From the NCBI GenBank assembly GCA_963675595.2, contig CAXXLZ010000002.1, positions 1,696,001 to 1,760,000 of the forward strand: a stretch of DNA of 64,000 nucleotides, given 5' to 3'. This DNA comes from Thermodesulfobacteriota bacterium (lineage in GTDB: Bacteria > Desulfobacterota > Desulfarculia > JACQYL01). The notes below the pieces were generated by a model. The model was not told the origin of the DNA. It did not search any database and saw only the letters and a list, made by a program, of their open reading frames with translations. Of the stretch, positions 1 to 16,550 are shown piece by piece. The position numbers were made by a program, and so were the translations under genes. Position 1 is the stretch's first letter, and each line of letters opens with the position of its first letter.

Positions 1-2208
1 CGCCAGGTTGTTGTAAAGGTAATTCGCAGTATCGGCAAAGGCAGTGAAAACAAGGACTTTTCTGTTGCCGACATTGATGGGGTTTTCAATCTTGCTGAGA
101 ATCAGGGCCTTCAGGTGTTGCAGCTTGGCGTCGGCCTCGGGAGTGACTTTTGCCATGGACTCCAGCAAGACGTTAATGACTTCCAGATCAACCTTCAGGT
201 CATGTTCCCACGATGGAAGATCCATATCCGCAAGGTTGATTTTGACCTTACCGCCAATTTCGGCGTCACCCGTAACCGGGATATCGTCCTCCTCGGCTTC
301 GAGGTTTGCCAGGCTATCGGTCCAGTCGGAGACACTGCCAGCATCGCCTGCGACCCTGAATGAATTGATTTTGCTCAGGGTGCGGGTGTGGTTGTCGTGC
401 AGGCTTTTCAGGGTAAGCCGAAAAGCCTCGACCGAGCTTTCCAGTCGCTTGAGCAGATTGGTCGTCATCAATGCCTGCAGGCTTCGTTCGCGGTCTGCCT
501 GCTTCAGCTTCCCTTTGCCGCCTTCCACCTGCGTGTCGTACAAGTCTTCATATTTTTTGAGCCGACTGGGCAGGATGTAGCTGATCGGGGCATAGACGGC
601 GAGCTTGAGCAGCGAGAGCTGTTCAAAGATTTCGTTAAAGTTCATGACATCCGTGCGCCCGGTCAGTGGCGAATGGAATGACAGAGGTTTACGGCGCTCG
701 GGAAACTGGCCTATGTCACTGGTGTCGTAAAAGGTCTGGATGTGCTTACGCGAACGGGCAATGGTGACGCTGTCAAGCAGTTCAAAAAAGTCAAAATCAA
801 GGGAATCCAGAATAGCTCGCGCCGTGCGATCCTCCGGCGCCAATTTTGACCATTGGTTGAAAATCCTTTGGGCATTGCGGAAGATTTCTTCCACCGATCT
901 GCCCGTGCGCAGCTTCTTGCTGAGATTTTCGGAATCGCCTTCGTAAGCCAGTGCGAGTTGGTTGCGCAGATCATTGAAGCGGTTGTTGACCGGGGTGGCT
1001 GACAGCATCAGAACCTTGGTTTTAACGCCCTGGCGCACAACCTGATTCATCAGTTTCTGGTAACGGGTTTCCCGGTCTTTGACGGCATCGTTGTTGCGGA
1101 AATTATGCGATTCGTCGATAACGACGAGATCATAATTGCCCCAGTTAACGCGGTTCAGAGGAATGCCGAACGACTCGCCCGAGGTGCGGGAAAGGTCGGT
1201 GTGGCACAGAACGTCGTAATTGAAGCGATCCCTGGAGAAGATATTGGTCGTCAGGTTGCAGTTGTAGTTCAGCCAGTTGTCCGCGAGCTTCTTGGGGCAC
1301 AGAACAAGTACCGAACGGTTCCGCAGTTCGTAGTATTTTACAACGGCCAAAGCCGTGAATGTTTTACCAAGCCCAACGCTGTCGGCCAAGATGCAGCCGT
1401 TGTAGGTTTCCAGCTTGTTGATAATGCCTATGGCGGCATCACGCTGAAAGTTGAAAAGCTTGTTCCAGACCAGCGTATCCTGATAACCCGTGCGGTCGTT
1501 GGGCAGGACGTCTTCGTCGATATCATCGAGAAAATCACTAAAGATGTTGTAAAGCATCAGAAAGTAGATGCGTTCAGCTGAATTTTCCTGATAGACCGAT
1601 GCAATGTGGTCACAGATCGCCGCCGTAACATCTTCGAGTTTCTCGGGGTCGCTCCAGATCTGGTCAAAAAGCTGAAGGTATGTCGACGTAAAGGCCATCT
1701 CGTCTACCCGGTTGACGATGTTGGAAACGGCATCCCCCTGCTGATATCCCAAATCCACGGCGGTGAAACCATGTAAAGGCATATATGCCGCTTCCAGCGA
1801 AGGCCCCTGAATGCAGGCAAACTGCTGCATCGGAGATTTGGTTTTGTTGGAGCGGAATCTGGCTTTGCGGCGCATCCATTCGGCACACTCGCGGGCAATG
1901 GCGCGCTGGGTGAGTTTATTGCGAAGCTGGATTTCAAATTCGGAGCCGTAGAGGCTGCGTTCCCGGTTGGCCTTAGGGATGAAAAATTCTCGACGTTCTT
2001 TTCTGAGCTTGTCGGTGACTTCGTTGGGCACGAAGGTCGGTGCAGTGAAGATGAATTCCAACGACTCAATCTTTGCGAGCTCGGACTTTAGGGCCTCATA
2101 CGCATAAATCGAAAAGCACGATGCCGCGATCTTCAATTTGGCCTTGGGGTGGATGGAAGCCTTCAGATCGTCGCCCAGCAAAGAATTGATATTGTCGATG
2201 ATCTTCAT
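1..2208 (-). CDS. SNF2-family (DEAD/DEAH-box) helicase of the type found upstream of type III R-M loci; 3' part runs off the window
   Basis: Manual translation from ATG 2208: MKIIDNINSLLGDDLK...AASCFSIYAYEAL...; Walker A region ILADSVGLGKTF; motif II LVVIDESHNFRN. Missing from the ORF track, presumably because the stop lies outside the window. Confidence 0.9.
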   Translation of the reverse strand, partial: MKIIDNINSLLGDDLKASIHPKAKLKIAASCFSIYAYEALKSELAKIESLEFIFTAPTFVPNEVTDKLRKERREFFIPKANRERSLYGSEFEIQLRNKLTQRAIARECAEWMRRKARFRSNKTKSPMQQFACIQGPSLEAAYMPLHGFTAVDLGYQQGDAVSNIVNRVDEMAFTSTYLQLFDQIWSDPEKLEDVTAAICDHIASVYQENSAERIYFLMLYNIFSDFLDDIDEDVLPNDRTGYQDTLVWNKLFNFQRDAAIGIINKLETYNGCILADSVGLGKTFTALAVVKYYELRNRSVLVLCPKKLADNWLNYNCNLTTNIFSRDRFNYDVLCHTDLSRTSGESFGIPLNRVNWGNYDLVVIDESHNFRNNDAVKDRETRYQKLMNQVVRQGVKTKVLMLSATPVNNRFNDLRNQLALAYEGDSENLSKKLRTGRSVEEIFRNAQRIFNQWSKLAPEDRTARAILDSLDFDFFELLDSVTIARSRKHIQTFYDTSDIGQFPERRKPLSFHSPLTGRTDVMNFNEIFEQLSLLKLAVYAPISYILPSRLKKYEDLYDTQVEGGKGKLKQADRERSLQALMTTNLLKRLESSVEAFRLTLKSLHDNHTRTLSKINSFRVAGDAGSVSDWTDSLANLEAEEDDIPVTGDAEIGGKVKINLADMDLPSWEHDLKVDLEVINVLLESMAKVTPEADAKLQHLKALILSKIENPINVGNRKVLVFTAFADTANYLYNNLA

Positions 2209-2411
2209 CGACCACGGTCCTTTTTGCTGCTTTCAACCGTGCCGCCGGTCTTCACAGAATGGTTGATCTTGTTTTCTTCAACTTTCAAAGCAGGCCCATG
2301 CGATGGGCGGGCATCGCCTGCTTGTCCATCCACTTGTACACGCTGTCGTTGCAGAGCCGAGGTACTTCCGCGTTTCAGTTGTTGATGACCAACATACTGT
2401 TTTGTTTTCAT
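2205..2411 (-). pseudogene. Frameshifted excisionase-family (HTH_17-like) DNA-binding protein
   Basis: Pieces in three frames: WSSTTETRKYLG / NDSVYKWMDKQAMPAHRMGLL*KLKK / KINHSVKTGG, matching the W-LS..EI..YLGV..DTVYKWI....MPAHR.GRLWKFK...VD.WVK.GG pattern. Its stop overlaps the helicase ATG (ATGA). Confidence 0.7.
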
Positions 2412-2994
2412 TTTTTTGCTCCATAGATGCTGTGGTTGGCCACCACCGCCGAAGCCGAAACGGGAGAGATCGGGTGCACTTCTTCCCACGTCAAAGACGT
2501 CCTCAACGTACAAATGGATTACGTGGTACGTGCAAACGATTTGTATCGATTTCAGCCGATCATTGTCAATGACGCTCGATGCCGGACGCCGGTATCGAGC
2601 CGTGGGGCCCTTATCAATGCGCCGTATCCGGCAGGACCAGAATGGGATGACTGCACCCTCCACGGGAATGGCCCGGGGAGGCGTTTGATGGTCCTTGCCG
2701 AGTCGTCCTAAGAATTGTCATGTTGAGAAATCCTGGACCCGAGCCATGGATCTGGCCGTAATACAACGTCCAGACGACAGGCTCCGCAAAATATGCAAGA
2801 CGAACGTGCCAGAAAGCTCTGCCAAAACCGACAGAGGCTTGTTTCTTGGCCCCCTGTTCAGGACAGGATGTGAGAGGGAAGCAGGACAGAAAATACGTCA
2901 CAACGACGGCCCACCTTAGCTCACAGCGCTTGTTAGCGCATCATATTTCAGTCTGGATGGACGAATGCCTACCGAAAGAGATCGTATCTTCCGG

Positions 2995-4173
2995 TCAGTT
3001 GCTGTTCATCGCATCCTCTTTCATTTTTGAGAGCTTTCCAAGCTCTTTCTCAAGACCCTGAACGCTATTCAGCTCCAGCCGAACCTCCTCGTCGATCTGC
3101 ATTGCTCGCTGCAAGTATGGCCGGGCATCAAGAGGATAGGCGGACCTGCCGATAACTTCGGCTGCTGATCGGAGAGAAGCCTTGAACTCCTCCATCAAAG
3201 CGGCAATCCGTTGGCCGAGGGTTTCGACTGCTTGGTGAAGTCGGAGTGTTTCGCTTTCCAGTTCGATTTCCCTTTGCAGCCTTTCCTTTTCCTTGCCATG
3301 GGCTGTGCTCATCCGGTCTCTGAGTTGGGTGAGATGGTAGGCATCGGATCGTTTGAGGTCAGCGTTGGAGGACTCGAGCTGTTTCATGCGTTTTTCGATT
3401 TGGTGTTCCGAATCCGCGATGGAGACCAATCTGTCCGCGATCTTCTTCCTCGCGAAAGGCGTTACTCCTTCTGTTTCAAGAATCCTGAGGATCGATACGA
3501 TACGTTGGAGGATATCTTCTGAATCTCCCCGGCTTTTCTTGGAGAGCTTTCCCTGTTTCTTCGAGGACTTGATCTCCTGTTCCTCGAATTCGACATCCCG
3601 ATCAATCTGTTGGGTGAATTCAGGGTTTGCTTCAATCTTGGATGCGAGGGACGTGATCGAGGTTTTTGAGAAGATCGTGTGAAAGATCGAATAGAGGAGC
3701 TTTCCGGCAGCGAACACGAAGACGAAGAAAAGCGTGGTCCTGAGCCAGGGCGCCCTTTGGTGGACAAAGTCCATGATGGACGGCGACACTGCCTGGATGG
3801 AGAAATAGATCATAACGAACGCGAGGGACAAAGCCGTCGACGCATGGAAACCCAGGTGCCGGGCGAGTTGATACAGCACCAAGCCGACGATGAAGAGAAG
3901 GAAGAAGATTGCCATCGGGCCAAAGGAAGCGAGACTGAACCTGAGCCGTGATTCAGCGACAGATAATCCTACAGACAAGAGAAGCGATACGGCGACTGTG
4001 AGAAGGCTCCCGCCTTTGCCTGTGAAACGCTTGCCGAGAGTGACCTGGCTGACTCCAAGGAAGAAGAGAAAAGCGAGGACGAAATCGACTCCCACAGCGT
4101 AGCGGTCGTAGATGTACGGGATATCGAATATTGAAAGGAGTTCCCAGATTTCATCGAGTCCGCTGCCGGCCAT
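2995..4173 (-). CDS. Membrane protein, ~5 N-terminal TM helices plus long C-terminal coiled coil; function unknown
   Basis: 392-aa ORF; hydrophobic segments in aa ~25-165, E/K/R-rich helical C-terminal half. Confidence 0.8.
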   Translation of the reverse strand: MAGSGLDEIWELLSIFDIPYIYDRYAVGVDFVLAFLFFLGVSQVTLGKRFTGKGGSLLTVAVSLLLSVGLSVAESRLRFSLASFGPMAIFFLLFIVGLVLYQLARHLGFHASTALSLAFVMIYFSIQAVSPSIMDFVHQRAPWLRTTLFFVFVFAAGKLLYSIFHTIFSKTSITSLASKIEANPEFTQQIDRDVEFEEQEIKSSKKQGKLSKKSRGDSEDILQRIVSILRILETEGVTPFARKKIADRLVSIADSEHQIEKRMKQLESSNADLKRSDAYHLTQLRDRMSTAHGKEKERLQREIELESETLRLHQAVETLGQRIAALMEEFKASLRSAAEVIGRSAYPLDARPYLQRAMQIDEEVRLELNSVQGLEKELGKLSKMKEDAMNSN

Positions 4174-4229
4174 ACCGGATGATCGGGAAGCGCGGGTATA
4201 AATAGTTTTCGGATGTCGGTGGAGATGAC

Positions 4230-4256
4230 CACCGGGAAAGGGAGATAGGGTCTTCC
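4230..4256 (-). promoter_or_regulatory. Candidate regulatory motif, copy A (GGAAGACC-N10-TTCCCGGTG)
   Basis: Intergenic, in sense orientation, 57-83 bp upstream of ATG 4173; both boxes recur exactly at 9722-9750. Confidence 0.45.
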
Positions 4257-4271
4257 TATGATCAAGGCCTG

Positions 4272-4916
4272 CTATCGAGGAAACCGTGTCTCTCTTCTAG
4301 CGTTTTTCCAAGCAAGACAGGCGATGGTGAGGATGGCGGAAACGAGGGCCAAGCCTGTAAGCGTTCCTGCGATGGGGCCTATTTTGTCGGTCTTCATGAC
4401 GTTGTCATCGATCAGTTCGCGGTACCAGGCCGGGATTTGGACAGCGTAAGATTTCGATTTCAGTTCGCCGAAGCTGTCTGCGTAGCGGCTTTGGTAGGAG
4501 ATCGCATGCCGTCCGATTGAGAGGTTCGAAGCGCCGGTATCTCTCGGCCTTGATTGAACGGCGTTTACGAATTGTTCGGGGAAGACGAAGTGCGCATGCC
4601 AGAGTCCGTCCCGGTTCGTGAATCCCTGAAAGAATCGGTCGAGCTTGGAGCCTGTGAAATGGGACTTGGTTTTGATGCGGTCGTATTTGAGGACGAAGTC
4701 GTTGACTTCGGACTCGGAGAGGACTTCGACTCCGCCGAAGAGTTCGCTGATCTGGCGGATGCCGTCCCTTAGAGCGTTTGCTGGATTTGTCCCAATTCCT
4801 ACGATTTCAAAGCCGTCAGAAGCAATGCCCTGGCCACCAGCAAAGAAAACAATGATAAGTAGGACGGCGATTGATGAAGACAGGCGCATGGCACTCACCA
4901 GACAAAGACTTATCAT
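4272..4916 (-). CDS. Exported/membrane-anchored protein with LPP20/FlgT-N-like segment
   Basis: Signal-like N-terminus, motif GIGTNPANALRDGIRQ...GVEVLSESEVNDFVLKYDRIKTKS, C-terminal TM helix followed by a basic tail. Confidence 0.6.
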   Translation of the reverse strand: MISLCLVSAMRLSSSIAVLLIIVFFAGGQGIASDGFEIVGIGTNPANALRDGIRQISELFGGVEVLSESEVNDFVLKYDRIKTKSHFTGSKLDRFFQGFTNRDGLWHAHFVFPEQFVNAVQSRPRDTGASNLSIGRHAISYQSRYADSFGELKSKSYAVQIPAWYRELIDDNVMKTDKIGPIAGTLTGLALVSAILTIACLAWKNARRETRFPR

Positions 4917-4945
4917 ACAATAACTTATAGTTCACCTGACTAATT

Positions 4946-6381
4946 GGTAGTGTCCAGAATATTTCGCACTTTGTAGGAGTCGTCCCTCGCACGGTGGTTT
5001 GAGGAGGCAGCCCCGGGTTCCATACGCCGAGGCTGCCGGTCGATATCAGCAGGCGGCTTTGAGCCTTTCTTCCTGCTCGTTAAGACGATCCATATTCAAG
5101 TACGCCCGGGTGCCCCACCGGGTGCCGACTATGTGACGCAGTCGGGCTGAGACGAGCATGAGGGCGGATTGCCCGTCGGGAAAGCACCCTACCACCCGAG
5201 TCCTGCGACGGATTTCCCGCATGAGGCGTTCCATGGGATTATTGGTACGCAGGCTCCGCCAGTGTTCTCTGGGGAAGGCGTAGTACCTCAACGTTTCTTC
5301 CGCTCCATCCCGCACGAGACGGGCCGCCTTGGGAAGTTTCATGGTTTCGAGTTTTCGTGTCACGGACTCGACCTTTTCCAGGGCCGCTTGACGATCCTCT
5401 TGGGCGTGGATCGCCTTGAGCATCGCCGCCACTTCCTTCACCTTGCCTTTGGGAACCGCCGTGAATACGTTGCGATAGAAATGGACGGCGCACCGTTGCC
5501 AAAGAGCCTCGGGATAGAACTCCGCCAGGGACTCGATCAGGCCGAGGCATTTGTCGCTGATGATGAGTTCAACGCCCCACAGGCCCCGGCGCTTGAGATG
5601 CCGCAGGAAACGGCTCCAGCTTTCCTTGTCTTCCTTGGTCCCTTCCACAACGCCGAGAACTTCTCGAAACCCCTCGACGTTGACCCCGACGGCCACCAGT
5701 ACCGATACGTTGCGGACTTCCCCTCCCCAACTCCGTTTCAGCCACACCCCATCCAAGTACACGTAGGCGTACTTTCCCTCGATCGGCCGATCCAGCCAAT
5801 CCTGTATCCGCACATAGAGCTTCTTGTTGAGTTCACTCACCGTGGACGGACTGACCCGCGTTCCCCAAAGCGCTTCCGTGATGTCTTCCACGCGCCTCAC
5901 CGAAACTCCGGCCAAATACATTTCGATCAGCGCTTCCTCCACGGAAGACTCTCGTCTCCGGTATCGTTCGATAATCGCGGTTTCGAAAGTCAGGGTTCGC
6001 AACTTGGGTACCTTCAGCTCCACTTCTCCCGCCTTGGTATGCAAACTCCGCTTATAATGACCCGCCCTCGTGTCCTTACGGCCTTCCGTTCGTTCGTATC
6101 GATCCGCGCCGCACAACACCGCCGCTTCCGATTCCAGTAGGGCGTTCAGCGTTTCTTCCACCGTCCCCCGAACCACTTCGTCCAAATGCCGATGAAGAGC
6201 GGCTTCCTCAATCTTGATGATTTCTCCCTGTCCCCGGCCTTCACTTCCCGATCCACTCCTGTTATCTTCCATTCCGTAGCCCTCCTTCTCGGTCCTCGGT
6301 TCTAGTTCTTTCTCAAACCAAACCGTACCCGATCGAGGGCTACCCCTTCTACGAAATCTGCGAAATATTCCCTACCTTATC
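4946..6381 (-). mobile_element. IS256-family insertion sequence (1436 bp), 8-bp target duplication GACTAATT
   Basis: Imperfect terminal IRs share GAATATTTCGCA; GACTAATT at 4938-4945 and 6382-6389. Confidence 0.95.
5046..6272 (-). CDS. IS256-family (mutator) DDE transposase
   Basis: Motifs EMYLAGVSVRRV, YVYLDG, LIISD, WQRCAVHF, RTNNPMERL.REIRRRT. Confidence 0.97.
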   Translation of the reverse strand: MEDNRSGSGSEGRGQGEIIKIEEAALHRHLDEVVRGTVEETLNALLESEAAVLCGADRYERTEGRKDTRAGHYKRSLHTKAGEVELKVPKLRTLTFETAIIERYRRRESSVEEALIEMYLAGVSVRRVEDITEALWGTRVSPSTVSELNKKLYVRIQDWLDRPIEGKYAYVYLDGVWLKRSWGGEVRNVSVLVAVGVNVEGFREVLGVVEGTKEDKESWSRFLRHLKRRGLWGVELIISDKCLGLIESLAEFYPEALWQRCAVHFYRNVFTAVPKGKVKEVAAMLKAIHAQEDRQAALEKVESVTRKLETMKLPKAARLVRDGAEETLRYYAFPREHWRSLRTNNPMERLMREIRRRTRVVGCFPDGQSALMLVSARLRHIVGTRWGTRAYLNMDRLNEQEERLKAAC

Positions 6382-6579
6382 GACTAATTACAGCTTTTAT
6401 TATTTACAGTTTAAACAGATAGACCCTGGATATCAAGCAAAAGGCTTTGTACAACACCTGTATAGGCGGATATACATGGCGTTGTACTTTGAGTCCGTCG
6501 AGAAATATCGATAAAGCTTCAATGTGGTGTATGGAATTATGAAAATACATACTATTTGATATAGGGGAATCTTCCTAAA

Positions 6580-8205
6580 TCAGTGCTCATTCGATTTTAG
6601 CATATCGTAATTGTCAAAAAACAGCGCAAGTAAGCTCTTGTGGAGGTCGTTACATTTATTGTAATCTAAAGGTTTACTGAGGTCACATTGTAGGTAATTA
6701 TTGCAGAATTCCGTATTTCTGTCGAAATAACTAAAATGCTTCCGCATGACGCAATAAATGTATTTCGAGTACATAAATTGCTGTATGTAGCTCGCCCATC
6801 CCAAAAGCTTTTCCTGAGCTTCATTACGGTTCTTCCAGCCAACTATATCTCCACCTATGAATAGTGGGAGTGGAATCATATCAAGAGGAAAATACCCATT
6901 GATAAATTCGATCATATTCTTATCCTGATATCTCAGGAGCTGGATCGACATATCTATGAAAAAGCCGGTGTCAAAGAAAAAGTTAAATGATATATGAGTA
7001 TTTCTTTTGACTTGTTCCAAGAAGTCAATTGTGGCATCAATCGTTGTGGATACCTGTGGCCATCCGAGAATATCCGGTATATTATTTACAATATTAATTG
7101 TTTTGATTAATATATTATTGCATCTAAATCTATCCAATAATTTATCTATACTTAAAACCATTTGCAGGAAAAATAAGCATGGGCTTCCTATCAAGGCCAT
7201 TTCATGATCATACTGATCAAAACCATAAAATGGATTATCTTGAGTCGGAAATCTCAGTAGAAAAGAAGTTTCTTTTGTTGTGAGTCCACTCTGCATCATG
7301 GCTAAATAAAGAAAAGGCTTGAATAGTTTTTCTGTTATTTTTTCTAAGCTATCCTTGAAGTAATCGAGTCTATGGTTTTTGTCGAACTTACTTATATGCA
7401 AGTACAGCAATCGATTCAATAAATAATATGATGTATTCGAAACCCTAATTCTAAGCCTATCATTAAGCGAAGATATTATGTTGCTGGCTTCTTGTAATTC
7501 GCAATAATTAGCAAAAAGGTCGGCTTGGCTTCCTGCCATGGATGATAGTATCGTCTTTCCAAGAAAATGATTTAGGAATATGTTATTAGCCAGAGAGTGA
7601 GCATATGATTCAAAAACCTGTACAGACCCTATATTAAGTCTTTGTTCTTTCCCATCATAGTCTTGCAATATCACCGTTGGAGTATCATAGCCATACCGGC
7701 CGATTTGATGGTGCTCTATTTCCAAAGACCAGTCGGTGATCCGGTCCAGTTGAAGGTTAACAGGCCAAACATCGGTACCTGAGAGCTTTTCCAAGACTTG
7801 GCCCACTTTGTAAGCGTTCCATAGAATATGGTCGAAGTTGGTGCCGTATTTGTTGCGATAGCCGCGCACATCTTCGGCCGTAAGCGGACTGTGTTCATAA
7901 CCTCTGTATCGGTTCAGGTGGTGCGTAAAGGGCAAAATAATCGGCTGTCCCTCCTCAGCCATGGATCGGACCCTGAGATTCAGCGGTATCAAAGCGTGAA
8001 ATTTGAAAAGGGTAGTGAGTATTCCGTGCGTCGTGCCGAGAGAGTGGATGTAGTGGACGAATTCGTGGAAGAGATTGTGCGTCAGATCTACGTGGTTTTG
8101 TGAAAGCGGAGAATCAACATCCGGATCGTACGAAAGAGGTTTCCCGGTAAAGACGCAGAGGCTGAGTAAGTCGAAAACACTGCGGTTACTTCGAAGGCTC
8201 ATCAC
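6580..8205 (-). CDS. Putative zinc metallopeptidase (HEXXH, gluzincin-like), soluble, 541 aa
   Basis: LFHEFVHYIHSLGTTHG near the N-terminus; downstream IGSVQVFESYAH supplies a candidate third Glu ligand; GGAGG RBS; no TM or signal peptide apparent. Confidence 0.65.
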   Translation of the reverse strand: MMSLRSNRSVFDLLSLCVFTGKPLSYDPDVDSPLSQNHVDLTHNLFHEFVHYIHSLGTTHGILTTLFKFHALIPLNLRVRSMAEEGQPIILPFTHHLNRYRGYEHSPLTAEDVRGYRNKYGTNFDHILWNAYKVGQVLEKLSGTDVWPVNLQLDRITDWSLEIEHHQIGRYGYDTPTVILQDYDGKEQRLNIGSVQVFESYAHSLANNIFLNHFLGKTILSSMAGSQADLFANYCELQEASNIISSLNDRLRIRVSNTSYYLLNRLLYLHISKFDKNHRLDYFKDSLEKITEKLFKPFLYLAMMQSGLTTKETSFLLRFPTQDNPFYGFDQYDHEMALIGSPCLFFLQMVLSIDKLLDRFRCNNILIKTINIVNNIPDILGWPQVSTTIDATIDFLEQVKRNTHISFNFFFDTGFFIDMSIQLLRYQDKNMIEFINGYFPLDMIPLPLFIGGDIVGWKNRNEAQEKLLGWASYIQQFMYSKYIYCVMRKHFSYFDRNTEFCNNYLQCDLSKPLDYNKCNDLHKSLLALFFDNYDMLKSNEH

Positions 8206-8252
8206 GAACCTCCAAACCGACTTTGAGGTTACGCTTTTCTTGGACTGCGGTA

Positions 8253-8834
8253 TTAGGCGATGCCTTTGGATTTTTTCCTGAGGACGTAGATAACCTCCTC
8301 ATTCCCGAGCAGCAATTCGATCTGTAAATCTCCCACTTCCCAGTTGCCCAATTCCGTGAGATCATCTCCTTCCAAATCGGGACTATGAAGGACAGTACCT
8401 CCGTACGAACCTTGGCGGCCGGCTTGGTCAAGCAATTTCGGGATGTCCAGAAGTTTTTCGAAAAGAACCGCTCCGTCTGCGGATTCGATTACAAATCGTG
8501 AGGAGGTAGGGGTCGAAAGCGTTCCGACGAATTCCGTGACGTTGGACAGGTCAATTTCTTCCATTTGAGAAGCGAAGTTAACTACATATACGCTTTCCTT
8601 GTTTATCGAAGCGCTTTCTGGCGTGGCTCCCTGCAATTCTTCTCGCATGCTCGGAATGACCCGTCTAAGCAATTTGTCTATCCCTCTGAAGTTCTCTTCC
8701 TCCTGTTCGATAGTCATAGCAAGCTCAGAGCATTCGTTGCATTCAAGAAGATGGATAGCCATCTCGTCATCCATTTCCGTTCCATCGAGGATGGATTCCA
8801 ATATCTTTTCTCTCATCACATCGTGAGTCGTCAA
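8253..8834 (-). CDS. Soluble zinc-binding anti-sigma factor (zf-HC2/ZAS)
   Basis: HxxxCxxC motif HLLECNEC near the N-terminus; TTG start with GGGAGG RBS overlaps the sigma stop (TTGA); acidic C-terminal domain, no TM. Confidence 0.75.
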   Translation of the reverse strand: MTTHDVMREKILESILDGTEMDDEMAIHLLECNECSELAMTIEQEEENFRGIDKLLRRVIPSMREELQGATPESASINKESVYVVNFASQMEEIDLSNVTEFVGTLSTPTSSRFVIESADGAVLFEKLLDIPKLLDQAGRQGSYGGTVLHSPDLEGDDLTELGNWEVGDLQIELLLGNEEVIYVLRKKSKGIA

Positions 8835-9634
8835 AGCAGATCCTCCCTCTTTGGAAGTTGTTTTTTTAATTCCTCGCGAAACATGCTCACTGCGGTTCTC
8901 ACTCGATATATAGTACACTCAAACCGTTCAGCGGTCTCGCTATAAGTACATTCATCGAAATATATGCTTCTTACAATATCAGCATAATTTCTTGGCATAA
9001 TTTCTAGGACTTTTTCAATACATTTCCGTACGATAGAATCGCGGATATTTCTCTCTATATCATCGTAAATATTATGTTCTTCCGGCAAACCATATCTGTC
9101 ATAAGATGTAGTCTTAAGCTGACCAAGTAAATTATCAATATATGAGTCAATTTCAGATAGTTTATTAAAAAGCTTAGAAAGCGCCTTTTGAAGTTTGGTC
9201 GATATGATTTTATCTTTAGCAATATTTGAAGTCATGTATTTAGTTGTAAGCTTACTGAGTCTCGTTATCCTTTTTTTCAGCTTTGATCTCCTTTTGAATA
9301 TTCTATCTAGTTCAGGCAAATGAACTTCCTTTTTTAGCATATCCACTCTGGAGCTTCTCAAGTGCATGAATATGAATCTTGCGATCGGAGTATCACCTAT
9401 GTATGATATGTAAGTTATTACCCTTATAAATGTCTCCTGGATTATGTCTTTTCTTAAATTTTCGAAGTAAACGTGTCTTGTCCCATCAGGATTATGGGAC
9501 TTCCTGTCATACATTCCATACTTATTTCTGAGGATATAATCGCATTTCCTGTAATAAGTGCTGTAAAGCTCCCCGAAAGCTAACTCATTCCCGGAATTCA
9601 ACGTTTCTACGAAATCCCTTTTGTTGTCAATCAT
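8831..9634 (-). CDS. ECF-type sigma-70 factor with a long basic insertion between regions 2 and 4
   Basis: Region 2-like GNELAFGELYSTY...KDIIQETFIRV...RVDMLKK; region 4-like MPRNYADIVRSIYFDECTYSETAERFECTIYRVRT. Confidence 0.85.
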   Translation of the reverse strand: MIDNKRDFVETLNSGNELAFGELYSTYYRKCDYILRNKYGMYDRKSHNPDGTRHVYFENLRKDIIQETFIRVITYISYIGDTPIARFIFMHLRSSRVDMLKKEVHLPELDRIFKRRSKLKKRITRLSKLTTKYMTSNIAKDKIISTKLQKALSKLFNKLSEIDSYIDNLLGQLKTTSYDRYGLPEEHNIYDDIERNIRDSIVRKCIEKVLEIMPRNYADIVRSIYFDECTYSETAERFECTIYRVRTAVSMFREELKKQLPKREDLL

Positions 9635-9721
9635 GGCGTCGCCTTCGCTTTCATGATTCTGCTCCACGAAATGACACTCAGATTTTTGAGCACGGAGATT
9701 GTTTCTCTCAGATAGAGAAGG

Positions 9722-9750
9722 GGAAGACCACGTTGCGGGCATTCCCGGTG
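9722..9750 (+). promoter_or_regulatory. Candidate regulatory motif, copy B (GGAAGACC-N12-TTCCCGGTG)
   Basis: In the divergent sigma/core-operon intergenic region, 75-103 bp upstream of ATG 9825; boxes identical to copy A. Confidence 0.45.
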
Positions 9751-9824
9751 AAGACCTCGAATGGCCCTCTGCGGTTAGTTATAGCTCGCATCTTTGATTC
9801 GCTGCAATTGGCAAAGGAGACCAC

Positions 9825-10136
9825 ATGGCAAATTTCAGCATTTTCGGCAAAGGCGATCAGGCAGGTCATGTGCAGACCACTCTGAAATCACAGGAACTAC
9901 CTGATGGAACAATCATCTACTTTATCGAGGAATATGTCAAGTTTATTAGCCCTGATGGCGTTTTGCACGAGCAGACGACGATTCAGTTCATCTGCAGTTC
10001 CTGCGGCTCAGGACCTGTGATCGTCGGTCAGACCGGTGCTCTGGTGGACGGCAGACCCGTCTGCGCGAAGTGTTCAGGTTTAGTGAGCGGGACGCTCCGA
10101 CAGGTCAGGTCGTTCTTCCTGAAGCCGGCTGAATAG
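9825..10136 (+). CDS. Small Zn-finger protein (CxxC...CxxC)
   Basis: AAGGAG RBS; CSSC and CAKC pairs; first gene of the + strand element operon. Confidence 0.7.
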   Translation: MANFSIFGKGDQAGHVQTTLKSQELPDGTIIYFIEEYVKFISPDGVLHEQTTIQFICSSCGSGPVIVGQTGALVDGRPVCAKCSGLVSGTLRQVRSFFLKPAE

Positions 10137-10242
10137 GGTTGTTTCTTAGGGTCCGGCATAGCAAAAGTCTCCGATTGCCGGGCCCTGGAGTAAATGCAGC
10201 GGCTTGCGGTTACCTAAACCATCCCTGGTTGGAGGAAAGAAC

Positions 10243-10464
10243 ATGAGATTCAGAGTGCTGGATAACAAGCCTGAGGAAGACTTCGACCCTCTTGAGGAAT
10301 TGACCGAGGCTGAACTCGTGAAGCTTCTGAGCGATGCGGAGAAGCCTTTTGAAGAACACTGGCCCGACGGAACCATTGTCAGGGAAATCCAAGACGACAT
10401 CGAATACCCGGATTCCTTCGTCAATGAGATCAGAGAGGAGATCAAGAAGAAAGCGAGGAAATGA
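10243..10464 (+). CDS. Small acidic hypothetical protein
   Basis: GGAGG RBS before MRFRVLDNKPEED...; ends 15 bp before the ATPase start. Confidence 0.65.
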   Translation: MRFRVLDNKPEEDFDPLEELTEAELVKLLSDAEKPFEEHWPDGTIVREIQDDIEYPDSFVNEIREEIKKKARK

Positions 10465-10479
10465 TTTGATTGAAAGGCA

Positions 10480-12600
10480 ATGCTTCACTTGGAGGTGGGC
10501 GTGGGCTCTGATGAAATCAAACAGGTGCTAGAACTGCTGGACACCGATCTGAAGAATGACCCGTTCTTCGCGAGTCATGTCAGGACTGCAAGGGTCACCA
10601 ATAACTGGGATCATGTTCTGGAATATGTCCGAAAGAACGATCGTTTGATCGGTCAGGTAAGGAACGAGAAAGCGGTTCAGCACCGGTTCAAGGGCCTTTG
10701 CCCCTTCTATCCCTTCCCGGAATCCCAGGATCTTTTGGAGTTCGGCGGAGACCTCAAGTTCGGGGTGGTCAACAACAGCGGCGACTTTTTCTCGATCAAC
10801 CCGGATGACCTTGCCATGCATCTCATGCTGCTCGGAAGAACCGGCGCTGGAAAAAGCTGGTTCATTCTTCATGCCATCGAGCAGCTCTGCAGCATGACCG
10901 GTTTCAATATTGTGCTTCCGGACAGAAAGCAATACTACAGGCGAGCTGTTTCTAAAATCTCCAGACTCAAAGTCCTGCCTTTCGAAAGACTCCTCTTCAA
11001 TCCTCTTCAGGTCCCGGATTGGATGCATCCGAGAGATTTCTGTTTTGTTTGGGCCAAGGCGTTCGTCGCGGACAATCTCCTGGGGCCGCCGACTGAAGGT
11101 CTTCTAAGGCAGGTCATCATGCGGCTTTTTACCGAAAACGGCGTTCTATCTGGAAGCAAGTATTACCCCACGATGAGTGAGCTCTACAAACACCTGGAAA
11201 AGATTCGGAGTTCTCCGAGGAATCCGTTGACCTTCAGGTACCGGGAGTTCTTGGAGTCTGCCTGCAATCGGCTGGAGCCGTATACCTATTTCTTCCAGTT
11301 CAATGAACGGCTCGGAGTCGGCCATGAAATCTTCGAGAACGACCACGTGGTGCTCGAACTTCCTGCGCATAAGCTGTCGAGCCAAATGCACAATTTCATC
11401 ATCAGCCTGATCGTGAACACGCTGTTCGCAAAACGCCAGCAATTCCAGCTCAGGGGAAATCAGCTTCGAACTCTCTTCATCGTGGACGAGGCGTCAAGCT
11501 ATATGAGCGCCAACCGGGAGCATACGGACCTTCAATGGATCGAGCCGGGTGTGAACGACATCGCGCGCATGGGAAGGGAATTCGGAATCGGTCTATGGAT
11601 GTGCAGTCAGGAATCGAAGAGCTTCAATTACGTCTTCAGGGCGAACTGTTTCACCAAAGTCGCGTTTCCGCTCACTGAAGGCCAGGATGTGAAGGATATC
11701 CAGGACAGTTTCGGGCTTTCGAACGAACAAAGGGATTATTTGTACGAACTGCCGAGCAACAGAGTCGCTGTCGTGCGGTACGCAAGATACCCAAAACCCT
11801 TCATCCTGGAGGTGCCTCTTCTGTCAGGCTACGACGACATTCCGGGTGACCGTGATCTTGAAGATGCGATGTCGGATTGGCTTTCCGATGTTGTGCCGAA
11901 AATCAGTCTGGTGCCTGATGTGAGTACTAAGGAAGACACAACAGGTCAGACCGAGGCACCGGGACCAGAGGACCGTGAATGGTCGATCTTTTCATCGGGT
12001 CAGGCTTTGCCCAAGAAAGAGTTGAACGCTCTCCTGATCATCAAAGCGCTTCAGAAAAAGCCCTTCCTGAAGAAGAAGGAACTCTTCGATGAAATCGGCA
12101 TCGGAACAGAAGACGCTGAATCCGCGAGAAGCCGTTTAATCGAACTCGGATACATCGAATCGCACAAAATCGGTCTGAAACCCGGTGCACCGGGTGAGTA
12201 CTCGGAATTGAAATCTCCGGCGTTCGAGAAATTCGGCGGAAGTCCTCCTCCGGGAAGAGGCGGGTTCAGGCATAAGTGCCTCTGCAACTTTGCCCAGGAG
12301 TGTCTTGAAGCTGAAGGATTCAAGACCAGGCTTGAAGGCTCCTTGAAAGGCATGCATGGGGCATTCGATATTCTGGCGGTGAAGGGCAAGGAGAAGATGG
12401 GTTACGAGATCACACTATCGTTCGATAATTTACTCGACAATGTCAGGGACGGCCTTGCATCCGAAGCAACGAAATTGGTGGTGGTCTGCCAAAACAGAGA
12501 GGAATTGGAGCGGGCGAAGGAAATCGTTTCCAAGGAGTATGGTGAAGAAGGTCGATTGGAGTTCAGAACCATCTTCGATTTCTCGAGGAAATCCAAATAA
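10480..12600 (+). CDS. HerA/FtsK/VirB4-like P-loop ATPase with C-terminal wHTH-like and PD-(D/E)xK-like domains
   Basis: Walker A GRTGAGKS, Walker B LFIVDEA, GREFGIGLWMCSQ; C-terminal GGFRHK...EGF...E...FDILAVK....GYEIT. Confidence 0.85.
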   Translation: MLHLEVGVGSDEIKQVLELLDTDLKNDPFFASHVRTARVTNNWDHVLEYVRKNDRLIGQVRNEKAVQHRFKGLCPFYPFPESQDLLEFGGDLKFGVVNNSGDFFSINPDDLAMHLMLLGRTGAGKSWFILHAIEQLCSMTGFNIVLPDRKQYYRRAVSKISRLKVLPFERLLFNPLQVPDWMHPRDFCFVWAKAFVADNLLGPPTEGLLRQVIMRLFTENGVLSGSKYYPTMSELYKHLEKIRSSPRNPLTFRYREFLESACNRLEPYTYFFQFNERLGVGHEIFENDHVVLELPAHKLSSQMHNFIISLIVNTLFAKRQQFQLRGNQLRTLFIVDEASSYMSANREHTDLQWIEPGVNDIARMGREFGIGLWMCSQESKSFNYVFRANCFTKVAFPLTEGQDVKDIQDSFGLSNEQRDYLYELPSNRVAVVRYARYPKPFILEVPLLSGYDDIPGDRDLEDAMSDWLSDVVPKISLVPDVSTKEDTTGQTEAPGPEDREWSIFSSGQALPKKELNALLIIKALQKKPFLKKKELFDEIGIGTEDAESARSRLIELGYIESHKIGLKPGAPGEYSELKSPAFEKFGGSPPPGRGGFRHKCLCNFAQECLEAEGFKTRLEGSLKGMHGAFDILAVKGKEKMGYEITLSFDNLLDNVRDGLASEATKLVVVCQNREELERAKEIVSKEYGEEGRLEFRTIFDFSRKSK

Positions 12601-12711
12601 GGAGTGATCGATTCCGACACACTTCAATGTTCGAGCAGATATTTCTTTTCAGGAGGAGGCGAAGCTGACGAAGTCGCCTGACGCAAAAACTTCTGAATGA
12701 AGGAGCAAGGT

Positions 12712-12927
12712 ATGGGACGTGAGTTTGATCCATCGGACGTTATCGAGATTTCGAATGACTTCATCGAAGAGGAGCTTGACCTCACTCTCGATGACTTAAT
12801 CGACGAGCAAATCCATTTACTCGAAGAGAAAGAGAAGGCTTCAGAGAAGATGAGGGAGATCATTCGTGAGATTGAGGAGCTACCCCAGGATCATTACTGG
12901 GACGATGTCACGAATCGGAAATCATAA
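12712..12927 (+). CDS. Small acidic hypothetical protein
   Basis: AAGGAG RBS before MGREFDPS...; very D/E-rich. Confidence 0.6.
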   Translation: MGREFDPSDVIEISNDFIEEELDLTLDDLIDEQIHLLEEKEKASEKMREIIREIEELPQDHYWDDVTNRKS

Positions 12928-12942
12928 TGAAAGGAGGGGGAA

Positions 12943-13185
12943 ATGCAGGTTAATTGGAGACACGTGCTTTTCGTTTTCCTTCTTCTCCTTCTTGCGTTCT
13001 ATCTCCCAGACCTTCTTCGAACAGTGGCTGAAGTAGTTCGGGAGTTTTCGGATGCGCTGAGTGCTTCGTGGCATGCAGGGTACAGAGGCCGATCTCATAG
13101 TGGCAGTGAAATTGAATCCATAGCCAAACTTGCAGTTATCGGAATCATCATCATAGGTATCATACGATTACTGAAACAGAAATAG
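12943..13185 (+). CDS. Small 2-TM membrane protein (80 aa)
   Basis: AAGGAGG RBS; two hydrophobic helices with a basic C-terminus. Confidence 0.7.
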   Translation: MQVNWRHVLFVFLLLLLAFYLPDLLRTVAEVVREFSDALSASWHAGYRGRSHSGSEIESIAKLAVIGIIIIGIIRLLKQK

Positions 13186-13395
13186 CGATAATAGGAGTCG
13201 TCATGAAAAATAATAAGACATCCCGGCAGTTAAAATTGTTGGAAGTGTGTTCTGGCTTCTACATTTTCTCTTTAATTTGCGTTGTTGGAGAGTGTTGCAC
13301 AGGTATGATCAGTCAATATTCTGACCATTTTTGGAGATGCACCGTAACTTTGTGTCAAGCCCCCAGTTTTTGGTCCAGGAGTTATGAGAGTTTTA

Positions 13396-14307
13396 TCATG
13401 ACTCGCGGTTTTCCATCCCCGGCCCTTGGGGCCACGGCGAAGCCGAGCTGAGCGAGGCGGAGTCGAGGCCCCAAGGGCTCGCCGCGAACTGGGCCGGGGT
13501 CATGTAATTCAATGCACTGTGCGGTCTTTCCTCGTTATAGACTTTCCGCCATTTGGCGGCCAGAGTCTGCGCTTCCTTGATGTTGTTGAAAATTTCCATG
13601 TTCAAGAATTCATCCCGAAAACGGCTGTTGAAACTTTCCACGTACCCGTTCTGCCAAGGGGCTCCCGGCTCGACGAAAAAGGTTCCCACTCCCAGGTCTT
13701 TCAGCCAATTTCTCACCTTTTGGGCTATAAATTCGGGACCGTTATCCGATCGAATGCCCGTTGGAACTCCCCGCTCGCCCATCAATCGGCTCAGCTCGTT
13801 CAAAACGTCTTCACCCGTAATGGAGCGGTTGATCCTCAGGGCCAGGTTTTCCCGAGTAAACTCGTCGACAATGGCCAAGCACTTGAACTGACGGCCGTCG
13901 ACCAAGCGGTCATGAATGAAATCCAACGTCCAGACATCATTTGCAAAAGCCGCCTTACGCTTGTTGCACGCATTGGCATCAACTCCCAGGAAGCGTTTCT
14001 TCTTGGCTTTTCGAGGTACCTTGAATCCTTCCTCTTTCCAAAGTCTATGAATTCGCTTGTAGTTTACCGCCCACCCCGCATCACGCAGCAGCCGAGTGAT
14101 CCTACGGCATCCAAAACGGGGATGTTCTCCAACCAACCGGTGAAGAGCCTTGATCAGTTCCACCTCATCGTCCCGTTCCTTCGGCTCATAACGTTGGGTG
14201 GATCGGTGTTGACCGGCTACGCGGCAGGCCCGACGCTCTGAAGCGGCATGTTCACTTCGAACATAATCAACCGCTTTCCTACGACGCGCCGGGCTTAGAA
14301 GTTTCCC
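13396..14307 (-). CDS. IS3 OrfB (DDE integrase core), expressed by -1 frameshift from OrfA
   Basis: WTLDF, IRSDNGPEF, PWQNGYVESFN; the frame extends upstream as LLSPARRRKAV to the slippery GGGAAAC at 14301-14307. Confidence 0.9.
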   Translation of the reverse strand, partial: GKLLSPARRRKAVDYVRSEHAASERRACRVAGQHRSTQRYEPKERDDEVELIKALHRLVGEHPRFGCRRITRLLRDAGWAVNYKRIHRLWKEEGFKVPRKAKKKRFLGVDANACNKRKAAFANDVWTLDFIHDRLVDGRQFKCLAIVDEFTRENLALRINRSITGEDVLNELSRLMGERGVPTGIRSDNGPEFIAQKVRNWLKDLGVGTFFVEPGAPWQNGYVESFNSRFRDEFLNMEIFNNIKEAQTLAAKWRKVYNEERPHSALNYMTPAQFAASPWGLDSASLSSASPWPQGPGMENRES

Positions 14308-14576
14308 TCCGCAAGATCCTTCAGCATTGCCTTGTCCAACATCAGATCGGCGACCAGCTTTTTTAAGCGTGCATTTTCCTTTTCCAGTTCTTTTAGCCGT
14401 TTGGCCTCCTCAGCCTTCATCCCCCCATACTGGTTTCGCCACCGGTGGTACGTCGCCTCGCTCACCTCCAGCGATTGGCAAACCTGCGCTATCGTCTGCC
14501 CTGCCGTCAGACGACGGTCCGCGTCTTCAAGTTTCCGGATGATTTGCTCCGCGCTGTGTCTCTTTCTCTTGGCCAT
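14295..14576 (-). CDS. IS3 OrfA (HTH)
   Basis: MAKRKRHSAEQIIRKL...YHRWRNQYGGM...LKELEKENARLKKLVADL...GNF. Confidence 0.92.
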   Translation of the reverse strand: MAKRKRHSAEQIIRKLEDADRRLTAGQTIAQVCQSLEVSEATYHRWRNQYGGMKAEEAKRLKELEKENARLKKLVADLMLDKAMLKDLAEGNF

Positions 14577-14764
14577 GCAAAAAGTCTCCTTCCGTTCTTT
14601 GGGCATTCAGACTCTCATTATACATGGACCAATTATCGGGGGGCATTCCATTTGGTCATGTGCGTCTTCGTATTCGTCGGATCATTGTACATCTTATCGA
14701 AGTATATCCAGATTGTTCGAAGAGAAGAAGAGCAGTCGAAATCCTGAAGGGCATTGCTTGACTT

Positions 14765-15151
14765 ATGACCGAGAGTCCTCTAATCCAAACCCCTGAGGAA
14801 GTCGCCAGGTTTCTGAAAAAAAGCCGGAGTTGGGTCTACCGGCATTGGAAGGAACTTGGCGGTCGGAAGCTTGGGGGTTCTCTTCTTTTTCCGTCAAAGG
14901 AGGACCTCTATGAGCGTATTTTTCGTTCAAAACAAAGGCTGGAGGTACAATTTCTACCTCAACAAAAACCGCTACGCAAAAGGATTCTACGCGACGAAGA
15001 ACGAAGCGAGGATAGCGGAATCGAAAAGAAAGGAGGCGATACAAAAGGGACTGCCGGATCCCGAAGAAGAACGAAGGATCGAGATCCGGGAGGAACCGAC
15101 AGTGGCGGCGGAGACGACCCCAACAGGCATGGCCTTCTTGGACCTCGTTAA
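14765..15151 (+). CDS. Excisionase-like HTH protein overlapping the integrase 5' end
   Basis: TPEEVARFLKKSRSWVY...GRKLGGSLLFP; directly upstream of the integrase. Confidence 0.75.
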   Translation: MTESPLIQTPEEVARFLKKSRSWVYRHWKELGGRKLGGSLLFPSKEDLYERIFRSKQRLEVQFLPQQKPLRKRILRDEERSEDSGIEKKGGDTKGTAGSRRRTKDRDPGGTDSGGGDDPNRHGLLGPR

Positions 15152-16070: not shown

Positions 16071-16092
16071 CCCTCTAACTGTTTGATATCAT

Positions 16093-16168
16093 TGGCGCGC
16101 CCGGCATGATTCGAACATGCGACCTACGGATTCGTAGTCCGGCGCTCTATCCACTGAGCTACGGGCGC
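16093..16168 (-). tRNA. tRNA-Arg (anticodon ACG)
   Basis: GCGCCCGTAGCTCAGTGGATAGAGCGCCGGACTACGAATCCGTAGGTCGCATGTTCGAATCATGCCGGGCGCGCCA folds as a cloverleaf with encoded CCA. Confidence 0.97.
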
Positions 16169-16325
16169 TTGGGTGTCCTTATAATGAATCCGGGATTCCG
16201 AATCAAGCAGAACTTTGACGCCGGGGCAACTTTCGCCCGGCGGTTCAATCAAGGCGCGAAACGCCGACCGGGGGAGAGGCGGGGGCACGGGCCGTTCTCC
16301 CTGCCCCGCATGCCAACCTTTTGTG

Positions 16326-16550
16326 AGTAGTCAGGGGGGTATCCGAAGGAACCCTTTTTGAAAGAAGGGCTCTCCCGGGCTCCTTCCCATACTTTGGGTA
16401 TTTTAACAGGTTGGACGGCACATGCCGCTCGCTTTGCCAATCCCGTACGCGATTCGTAAAAGCGCAACGGGGGTCCGGGGGGCCATGGGTCCCCCGGCGG
16501 GGGTTGCGGGGGACGACTTTCCCGAAAGCCCTTCCCACAAACGCCGGCCC
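16326..16550. repeat. Dispersed intergenic repeat, family 2 (REP/MITE-like)
   Basis: Shares GGGGTATCCGA.GGAACCCTTTTT, TTGGACGG and AACGGGGGTCCG with 19097-19314, and GACTTTCCCGAAAG with 33170-33205; boundaries approximate. Confidence 0.7.

Follow-up and report, generated by a model that had tools for sequence, protein, structure and literature searches.

A σ factor, a zinc-type anti-σ factor, and a putative metallopeptidase encoded together on a tRNA-integrating element of a Thermodesulfobacteriota bacterium

What might an orphan protein with a zinc-protease signature do when it is encoded directly behind a σ factor and its anti-σ factor on a mobile element? The question is raised by a locus in a Thermodesulfobacteriota bacterium (assembly GCA_963675595.2, contig CAXXLZ010000002.1, positions 1,696,001 to 1,760,000), a stretch of 64,000 nt that we call the window and to which all coordinates refer, save those given with a contig (C1, C2) of the genome. 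Here three genes at 9634..6580 (C2:1.70 Mb in the host genome, G000) encode P0001, an extracytoplasmic function (ECF)-type σ factor; P0002, which resembles the soluble zinc anti-σ (ZAS) proteins; and P0003, an orphan HEXXH protein. An initial annotation, made from the sequence alone, had described this trio as lying on an integrative element, and that observation is confirmed: the locus is real and unusual. The reading that we favor, with a probability of roughly 0.4, is that gene 3 encodes a zinc peptidase that would remove the anti-σ factor on a cue, leaving the σ factor to drive genes of the element.

The three genes are confined to the minus strand and share one orientation. The σ gene (8831..9634, 267 residues) starts at ATG 9634, the start also used by its homolog P0007, and shares a 4-nt start/stop overlap, TTGA, with the anti-σ gene (8253..8834, 193 residues). 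The TTG start of the latter lies 6 nt behind a GGGAGGA, and its homolog P0005 begins at the same residue. For gene 3 (6580..8202, 540 residues) the longest open reading frame (ORF) opens at GTG 8205, and the start is most likely ATG 8202 because this codon sits 6 nt past a GGAGG. The spacer between genes 2 and 3 therefore measures 50 bp to the ATG or 47 bp to the GTG, and no terminator-like site was seen within it. The GC contents of the longest ORFs are 0.37, 0.47, and 0.40, compared with 0.56 for the genome; within gene 3 the GC content shifts from ~0.34 over 6501-7500 to ~0.47 over 7501-8500. Kyte-Doolittle maxima over 19 residues are 1.12, 0.92, and 1.66, which gives a confident transmembrane segment in none of the three proteins; the 1.66 stretch of gene 3 is borderline and has no counterpart in its homolog P0008, whose maximum is 1.36. 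Thus the tight minus-strand linkage, the TTGA overlap, the 47-bp spacer (counted to the GTG), the AT-rich composition, and the lack of transmembrane segments, all put forward in the initial annotation, hold up, with the single borderline stretch in gene 3 to be added.

The trio stands 5 kb from a tyrosine integrase gene (14856-16070, plus strand; Phage_integrase E 2.8e-22), which adjoins its presumptive target, a tRNA-Arg(acg) gene (16093-16168, minus strand). A 49-bp att-like direct repeat (16089-16137) covers the 3′ end of this tRNA and recurs as a 49-bp copy 93.4 kb leftward (-77328..-77280) and as a 46-bp copy 47.5 kb further on (-124886..-124841). These three repeat copies of 46-49 bp therefore delimit two tandem islands of ~93.4 kb and ~47.5 kb, and the trio belongs to the ~93-kb island that adjoins the tRNA. 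Integrase, tRNA, and repeat together bear out the placement on an integrative element. Divergent from the trio on the plus strand, across a 190-bp intergenic region (9635..9824), run genes for a 103-residue CxxC...CxxC protein, an 86-residue protein, and a 706-residue HerA/FtsK-like ATPase (9825..12600; DUF87 E 4.7e-6), the last of which also matches the PADLOC HerA and mad8 models (E 1e-15 to 3e-17). Of the divergent ATPase-xis-int operon initially described, the ATPase, the integrase, and the divergence are upheld; the "xis" is not, the small ORFs at 12697-13451 having no Pfam family. Promoters for both directions presumably lie within 9635..9824. Counts in a promoter consensus scan were near those of shuffled sequence, with nothing beyond chance, and no convincing bipartite motif was common to the candidate promoter regions.

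By its sequence, gene 1 is a divergent ECF-type (group IV) σ factor with a long linker. Residues 20-260 of P0001 align with positions 3-165 of TIGR02937 (sigma70-ECF) at 52.2 bits, above the cutoff of 42.9; the protein also matches PHROG 1740, "RNA polymerase sigma factor" (E 1.6e-11), and Sigma70_r4_2 at a borderline 26.1 bits (cutoff 25.7). Its σ2 region lies inside the TIGR02937 alignment, with DIIQETF visible, and has no match to Pfam Sigma70_r2. Two homologs were found. P0007, 66% identical, matches Sigma70_r4_2 at 28.9 bits and also passes Sigma70_r4 (25.1 bits, cutoff 24.1). The other, encoded on a 13.8-kb contig (L025) from another member of the phylum, is 22% identical (BLASTP E 5e-12 over 257 residues) and scores 17.6 bits with Sigma70_r2, under the cutoff of 24. 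Between σ2 and σ4, P0001 carries a Lys-rich helical insert of ~100 residues, which is kept in both homologs. Typical compact ECF σ factors have ~160-200 residues, and P0001, with 267, departs from their short-linker two-domain layout. No paralog of any trio gene was found in the host's own genome.

Gene 2, judged from its motif and its modeled complex, is a soluble zinc-type (ZAS-like) anti-σ factor of gene 1. P0002 has no family match in Pfam, NCBIfam, PADLOC, or PHROGs; with zf-HC2 (PF13490) it gives no match to E 1, and P0005 none to E 10. The ZAS pattern is HxxxCxxC with a fourth His or Cys ligand ~24-27 residues upstream. P0002 shows it as H4 plus H28xxxC32xxC35 in an N-terminal helical anti-σ domain; P0005 (73% identity) has the same residue at each of the four ligand positions, and the same pattern occurs in the L025 ZAS protein and in P0013, a regulator from a distant genome described below. 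The translational coupling is shared as well, a 4-nt start/stop overlap with a GGGAGGA Shine-Dalgarno sequence being found both in the window (TTGA) and in L025 (ATGA). Scans of genome and metagenome contigs gave no further relatives of P0002. The monomer was modeled with a mean pLDDT of 53.6 and a C-terminal β-rich domain (~82-187) of moderate confidence, and Foldseek matched this model to nothing in the PDB at E 1e-3 or better, the β-rich domain having no significant structural neighbor. Modeling of P0001 with residues 1-100 of P0002 in three runs, with controls, gave a median interface score (ipSAE) of 0.77 compared with 0.01 for the best control, a pass that signifies likeness to the ECF/anti-σ class and not proof of binding, because such complexes have been solved. 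Of solved complexes, 58 of 80 reach the pass mark, and of mismatched pairs, 2 of 110. The runs had at least 69% of contacts in common with a partner pLDDT of at least 66, and P0002 is modeled as clamped between σ2 (contacts at 27-38 and 83-93) and σ4 (199-260). Both early assignments, an ECF σ factor and a soluble zinc anti-σ factor, are thus borne out, the first by the TIGR02937 score and the second by the conserved ligands and by the complex modeling that the initial annotation had proposed.

P0003 carries HEFVH at residues 46-50 followed by H53, a downstream FESYA with E198, and four cysteines at 484, 500, 506, and 517. Its sole homolog among 1.84 billion representative proteins, a search in which relatives more than 50% identical would fall inside its own cluster and hence be hidden, is the 512-residue P0008 (phmmer E 6.2e-4), encoded on a 5197-bp contig. 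The two are truly related and give collinear N- and C-terminal BLASTP matches and shuffle z scores of 13-17. They have in common the motif LFHEFxHxxHxLGTTxGI (HEFVH in P0003, HEFCH in P0008), the motif xE[SN]YAxHL ~140-150 residues after HEXXH (FESYA and MENYA, respectively), and a C-terminal Cys spacing of 16/6/11-12; both candidates for the third metal ligand, H53 and E198, are kept. Thus HEXXH and the downstream Glu, on whose conservation the initial annotation had staked its call of a HEXXH metalloprotease, are both conserved, as far as a single homolog can tell. This set of motifs is what a gluzincin-like active site with an added metal cluster would look like.

P0003 is nearly unique. 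In a word-indexed search of 5.8 billion proteins, limited to lengths of 297-945 residues and thus blind to shorter fragments, P0003 was the only relative among 6119 candidates. Genomes of its own phylum contained a relative in 1 of 41 and in 1 of 401, each time the host genome itself. Searches of genome contigs with the gene 3 alignment and with P0008 found none; the back-translated DNA pattern HEFxHxxHxxGTTxG was unmatched in genome, viral, and metagenome contigs; and tblastn of gene 3 against plasmids and phages returned nothing. In a protein atlas, the clusters nearest to P0003 were unnamed "hypothetical protein" sets of 489-525 residues (score 0.96, recognition low), and nothing lay near it when the atlas was restricted to named clusters.

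The comparative evidence comes instead from sister elements. Homologs of the genes flanking the trio define a frame around the cassette, with the genes of the HerA/FtsK-like ATPase and the tyrosine integrase at one end and those of two conserved membrane proteins at the opposite end. The pair in the window consists of a 214-residue protein with hydrophobic N- and C-terminal segments (4272..4916, minus strand), whose gene follows gene 3 once an insertion sequence (IS) is removed, and a 392-residue protein with multiple N-terminal transmembrane segments and a coiled coil (2995..4173, minus strand), the conserved distal gene of the frame. In four of four intact frame loci the third slot, the position of gene 3, holds a gene with a protease signature, two of them recognized by Pfam (CHAT, M48) and two by HEXXH alone. 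A ZAS motif is present in three of the four, and a recognizable σ factor in two plus one weak case. The ATPases of the sister loci are 32% and 44% identical to that in the window, and that of L025 is 40% identical. This pattern is stronger than an annotation from the sequence alone could know.

Sister elements in the host genome were marked by blastn through three paralogs of the 392-residue protein, 88-89% identical and each near an integrase of the same family (C1:1404536, C2:879671, C2:4233651). One of these elements, S1 (L016, G000:C2:866001-884000), lies at a tRNA-Val. It has an integrase, a split HerA-like ATPase (44% identical), and a small gene, divergent from genes for P0009 (333 residues), P0010 (250 residues), and P0011 (1268 residues; 7097-12765 for the three), behind which follow genes for 205 and 390 residues, including a copy of the 214-residue gene. 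P0011 combines tetratricopeptide repeats (TPRs) with a CHAT caspase-like domain (E 1.1e-67), and its translation keeps the catalytic motifs HVATHG and LSACDTG; among PDB sequences it gave TPR matches only, with no match to Csx29, and there is no CRISPR array close to its gene. At least six proteins of the host genome have a CHAT domain that scores above the Pfam cutoff, several in ORFs of more than 1000 residues (e.g., C1:878119-878919 and C2:2607000-2607794). P0009 showed no homology to the σ alignment (profile E 0.044 over 23 columns, with a σ4-like stretch visible by eye only), nor did P0010 to the anti-σ alignment (profile E 0.28). The other two copies (L017, L018) are reduced to integrase and membrane gene, with no protease.

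Two further frame loci come from other genomes of the phylum. In the distant genome G265 (L019), a 727-residue HerA-like ATPase gene is divergent from genes for P0013 (324 residues) and, 15 nt behind it, P0012 (503 residues). P0013 resembles a σ4/zf-HC2 fusion, with zf-HC2 at residues 268-298 (26.7 bits, cutoff 22.2) and subthreshold σ4 matches; a profile comparison with the σ alignment (E 0.18) gave no homology. P0012 belongs to no family and shows FHEYRHFH at 84, MESSA at 206, and four C-terminal cysteines, the same order of three motifs as in P0003. Genes for 209 and 422 residues follow and, further on, one for a 397-residue relative of the 392-residue protein. The L025 contig again lies at a tRNA-Arg(acg), with a Zn-ribbon gene and the ATPase gene divergent from a cassette that contains the σ homolog described above, a ZAS protein whose motif reads HLLECEYC (26 residues align with P0002 at E 1e-5), and, in the third slot, a 694-residue membrane protein matching Peptidase_M48 (37.4 bits, cutoff 20.3); the gene for a 422-residue relative of the 392-residue protein follows. 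The gene 3 alignment showed no homology to the M48 protein (profile E 0.39).

Collectively, these data suggest a model in which the trio would serve a family of tRNA-integrating elements as a cassette for sensing and regulation. The soluble ZAS protein, translationally coupled to the σ factor, would clamp σ2 and σ4 and keep the σ factor off. Gene 3 would act as a cytoplasmic zinc metallopeptidase that, on an intracellular cue, cuts or destabilizes the anti-σ factor, and the freed σ factor would transcribe the divergent ATPase-integrase operon, the downstream membrane proteins, or both. The position of gene 3 would be a slot for proteases, taken in sister elements by unrelated ones.

A number of observations weigh against this model, beginning with gene 3 itself. 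Searches of Pfam, NCBIfam, PHROGs, and PADLOC place P0003 in no peptidase family, and it resembles nothing in the PDB by sequence or by profile. An AlphaFold2 (AF2) model built on a two-row alignment (pLDDT 31.7, pTM 0.21, predicted mostly helical) is unusable, so that the call of a protease is a hypothesis, and a HEXXH is expected by chance in an estimated few percent of proteins of this size. Of the metalloprotease initially proposed, then, the conserved HEXXH and Glu motifs stand, and no family could be assigned. These findings would also suit a scheme in which gene 3 is linked to the regulator pair and is no peptidase, its metal sites serving for sensing or for some other hydrolysis and its product acting on the anti-σ factor by partner switching. 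Such a scheme draws on the lack of any assignable peptidase family or fold and on the build of P0003, whose 540 residues, mostly helical prediction, and conserved C-terminal Cys4/His cluster are atypical of small zincins. We nevertheless consider it quite improbable: bona fide proteases occupy the slot at two sister loci, and gluzincins are classically recognized by just such a HEXXH and a conserved Glu motif downstream of it.

The regulators and the sister loci supply further points on the same side. The modeled σ/anti-σ complex may owe its pass to memorized ECF/anti-σ structures. In S1, P0009 and P0010 have no family match and are not recognizable as σ and anti-σ factors. P0012 shows no significant similarity to P0003 and P0008 (z 0.3-1.25; hhalign E 0.24), so that its link to P0003 lies in motif order, size, and position alone. 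The M48 gene of L025 runs convergently, and its product is membrane-bound. Relatives of the ATPase were found in 15 of 401 phylum genomes, counting the host, and in none of the 17 more distant ATPase loci (12 genomes; five loci short or cut) was an intact cassette found, a screen that is weak because it used BLASTP and motifs only. Beside one ATPase fragment (L067, G007:C1:451000-464000), a 106-residue ORF at 2578-2898 with HVDECTYC stands between IS3-like transposase ORFs and is probably what is left of a related cassette. Searches with the ATPase alignment found nothing in viral contigs, and tblastn against plasmids gave five weak matches of less than 31% identity.

A further challenge comes from relatives of the locus. 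When contigs of public sequencing runs were compared with window positions 2000-13000 at a match threshold of 80%, a 4662-bp contig from a related organism (organism B, under another label and from another study) matched 6386-8187 with 98 differences in 1802 bases, its gene 3 being 94.6% identical, and matched 2514-4922 with 160 differences and 4 gaps in 2409 bases, skipping the IS. It thus joins gene 3 to the 214- and 392-residue genes, and the 299 bases that remain on the anti-σ side match at less than 80%, as is also true of 152 bases at its other end. Other contigs, from the source study, match from 8490 upward only. Because the contigs break at 8187 and 8490, the block of gene 3 and membrane genes and the block of the σ gene with the anti-σ N-terminal part recombine separately, which would place a recombination junction in or near the anti-σ C-terminal domain. 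The 5′ end of gene 3 coincides with the breakpoint in the contig of the relative. In addition, the collection containing the 5408-bp contig with the P0005 and P0007 genes yielded no gene 3 relative of 297-945 residues, and a relative of at least 297 residues would fit on such a contig in roughly three cases of four, as estimated from lengths. The conservation check on the trio thus had a mixed outcome: the slot with a protease signature recurs in all four frame loci, and the gene 3 and anti-σ blocks are separable, with no intact cassette at the 17 distant loci.

These results bear on the main rival, in which the ZAS protein or its C-terminal β domain senses the cue itself and gene 3 is an output, cotranscribed or σ-dependent, serving for instance as an effector that works with the membrane pair or as an enzyme that processes it. 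In organism B, the block conserved at 93-95% comprises gene 3 and the 214- and 392-residue genes and excludes the anti-σ allele; the membrane pair is the constant feature of every frame locus, beside a cassette that differs from one to the next; and ZAS proteins that sense directly are known, RsrA and ChrR among them. Set against this, unrelated protease types recur beside the regulator genes and not merely beside the membrane pair, and two reduced copies of the element keep the membrane gene without a protease. The 50-bp spacing without a terminator-like site fits one operon, although an operon suits both readings. On balance we hold a purely output role for gene 3 to be rather doubtful.

The same contigs could also be taken to mean that the neighborhood is due to chance, with gene 3 as unrelated AT-rich cargo on a mosaic, IS-ridden island. 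The island is indeed a mosaic, with IS256 and IS3 insertions and pieces that are 88-89% paralogous; GC content is uneven both across the trio and inside gene 3; and the breakpoints at 8187 and 8490 fall in the contigs of relatives. Yet gene 3 shares the strand of the regulators across a short spacer free of terminator-like sites, G265, despite an identity of only ~28-32% between the shared proteins, repeats the succession of a ZAS-bearing regulator and a ~500-residue HEXXH protein with 15 nt between their genes, and the protease slot is occupied in four of four frame loci. A chance neighborhood is therefore, in our estimate, very improbable, and peptidase-mediated release of the σ factor is the reading that we retain.

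The remainder of the island reflects repeated insertion. An IS256-family element (4944..6383, minus strand; Transposase_mut E 6.7e-114) lies directly downstream of gene 3. It has a 97.6% identical copy elsewhere in the genome, the contig of organism B joins 4922 to 6386 without it, and it is a recent addition that lies outside the cassette. An IS3-family element of ~1298 bp (13352-14650) separates the ATPase and small ORFs from the integrase; more than 25 copies, 98.8-100% identical, are spread over all three contigs, and IS expansion is therefore under way in this genome. The 214-residue gene is syntenic with gene 3 in the contig of organism B. The 392-residue gene, found in four of four frame loci, may be a constant output or an entry-exclusion gene of the elements; of 400 other phylum genomes, 3 encode relatives that are 24-28% identical, and those in G027 and G105 have different neighbors (ribonucleotide reductase, Cdc6-like, and ThiF genes). 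On the minus strand over window positions 1-2208 and leftward (L005 13259-19185, corresponding to -6741..2208), genes for an SNF2 helicase (~1090 residues), a DUF4391 protein, an N6_N4 methylase, and a ResIII helicase with RE_endonuc look like a restriction or defense module on the same island, and an AAA_13 ATPase gene and another IS are found further left. Just outside the tRNA, at 16320-16523, is a repeat of ~100-200 bp with dozens of genomic copies at 69-91% identity that looks like a miniature inverted-repeat transposable element or a repetitive extragenic palindrome.

How does the trio compare with known σ switches? On ICEBs1 and phages, the ImmA-ImmR module encodes a HEXXH protease beside the master regulator; it adjoins int and is oriented divergently to the excision and transfer genes, and the protease inactivates the brake. 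The trio is similar in having a HEXXH gene beside the element's regulator near int, with a proposed role in removing a brake; the substrate there is a repressor and here would be an anti-σ factor, and P0003 has no Peptidase_M78 match and is several times larger than ImmA. RsrA/SigR and ChrR/RpoE are the classical ZAS pairs, with which the trio shares an HxxxCxxC domain predicted to clamp σ2 and σ4 and a presumably cotranscribed σ gene, proteolysis being a common route of release.

The closest parallels in overall makeup are linked to CRISPR. Craspase, of type III-E, resembles the family in that a TPR-CHAT protease occupies the slot of sister element S1, and differs in that the trio has no Cas7-11, CRISPR RNA, or CRISPR array nearby, its candidate protease is of the HEXXH type and not CHAT, and its anti-σ factor is of the ZAS type. 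Desulfonema ishimotonii, the organism of the Craspase study, is reportedly a member of Thermodesulfobacteriota, the phylum of our host. In that system, as summarized in the source, the ECF-like CASP-σ is freed from inhibition when Csx30 is cut; a cytoplasmic protease (Csx29, TPR-CHAT), a soluble inhibitor, and an ECF-like σ factor are likewise encoded together (PMC10028731). The same source, in outline, cites RseA with DegS and RseP as a case of regulated proteolysis of an anti-σ factor (PMC10028731). CalpL (SAVED-Lon), CalpT, and CalpS form a comparable tripartite set of protease, anti-σ factor, and ECF-like σ factor that, according to the summary of that work, mounts a transcriptional response in type III CRISPR systems (10.1101/2024.05.08.593097). 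CalpL is activated by cyclic tetra-adenylate (cA4) through SAVED, whereas the scanned neighbors of the trio include no SAVED, Lon, or cyclase, and the Pfam scan of P0003 itself detected neither a CHAT nor a SAVED-Lon domain. The two CRISPR arrays of the genome lie at C1:0.95 Mb and C2:4.38 Mb, the latter 2.6 Mb away, with none near the trio, and no cas family occurs among the scanned neighbors, the sole, weak Cas10-family signal being on C1. Because cas association is lacking and the protease differs, the trio stands outside the CRISPR-linked triads and may be a CRISPR-independent, protease-released σ switch. DdvS/DdvA, finally, is an ECF σ/anti-σ pair that controls adjacent defense genes in a CBASS/CRISPR island; DdvA is transmembrane and the part of the source cited here describes no dedicated protease, whereas the trio is predicted to be all cytoplasmic (PMC11506125). 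A PADLOC scan revealed no named system of this makeup, and the literature searched, mostly at abstract level, has no description of a free-standing, element-borne cassette of σ factor, soluble ZAS, and protease, in keeping with the initial view that the combination is not a named system.

A wider proposal, which taken as a whole we think somewhat unlikely, is that tRNA-integrating elements of Thermodesulfobacteriota carry a fast-evolving, CRISPR-independent, immune-type cassette of protease, soluble anti-σ factor, and σ factor. The slot proteases (HEXXH/Cys4, M48, TPR-CHAT) would be swapped, each sensing its own cue and freeing a long-linker σ factor for mobilization or for membrane-acting defense, and the cassettes would be free-standing relatives of the Craspase and CalpLTS arms. 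That type III CRISPR systems can act by cutting an inhibitor and so freeing an ECF-like σ factor is established. If the slot holds input proteases, the elements would carry transcriptional alarm switches assembled from interchangeable proteases, from which the CRISPR-associated versions could plausibly have evolved. A new metallopeptidase family would then be made up of P0003, P0008, and perhaps P0012, the cassettes would offer compact, orthogonal protease-gated σ switches for synthetic biology, and the signal that such elements heed before excision or defense would become testable.

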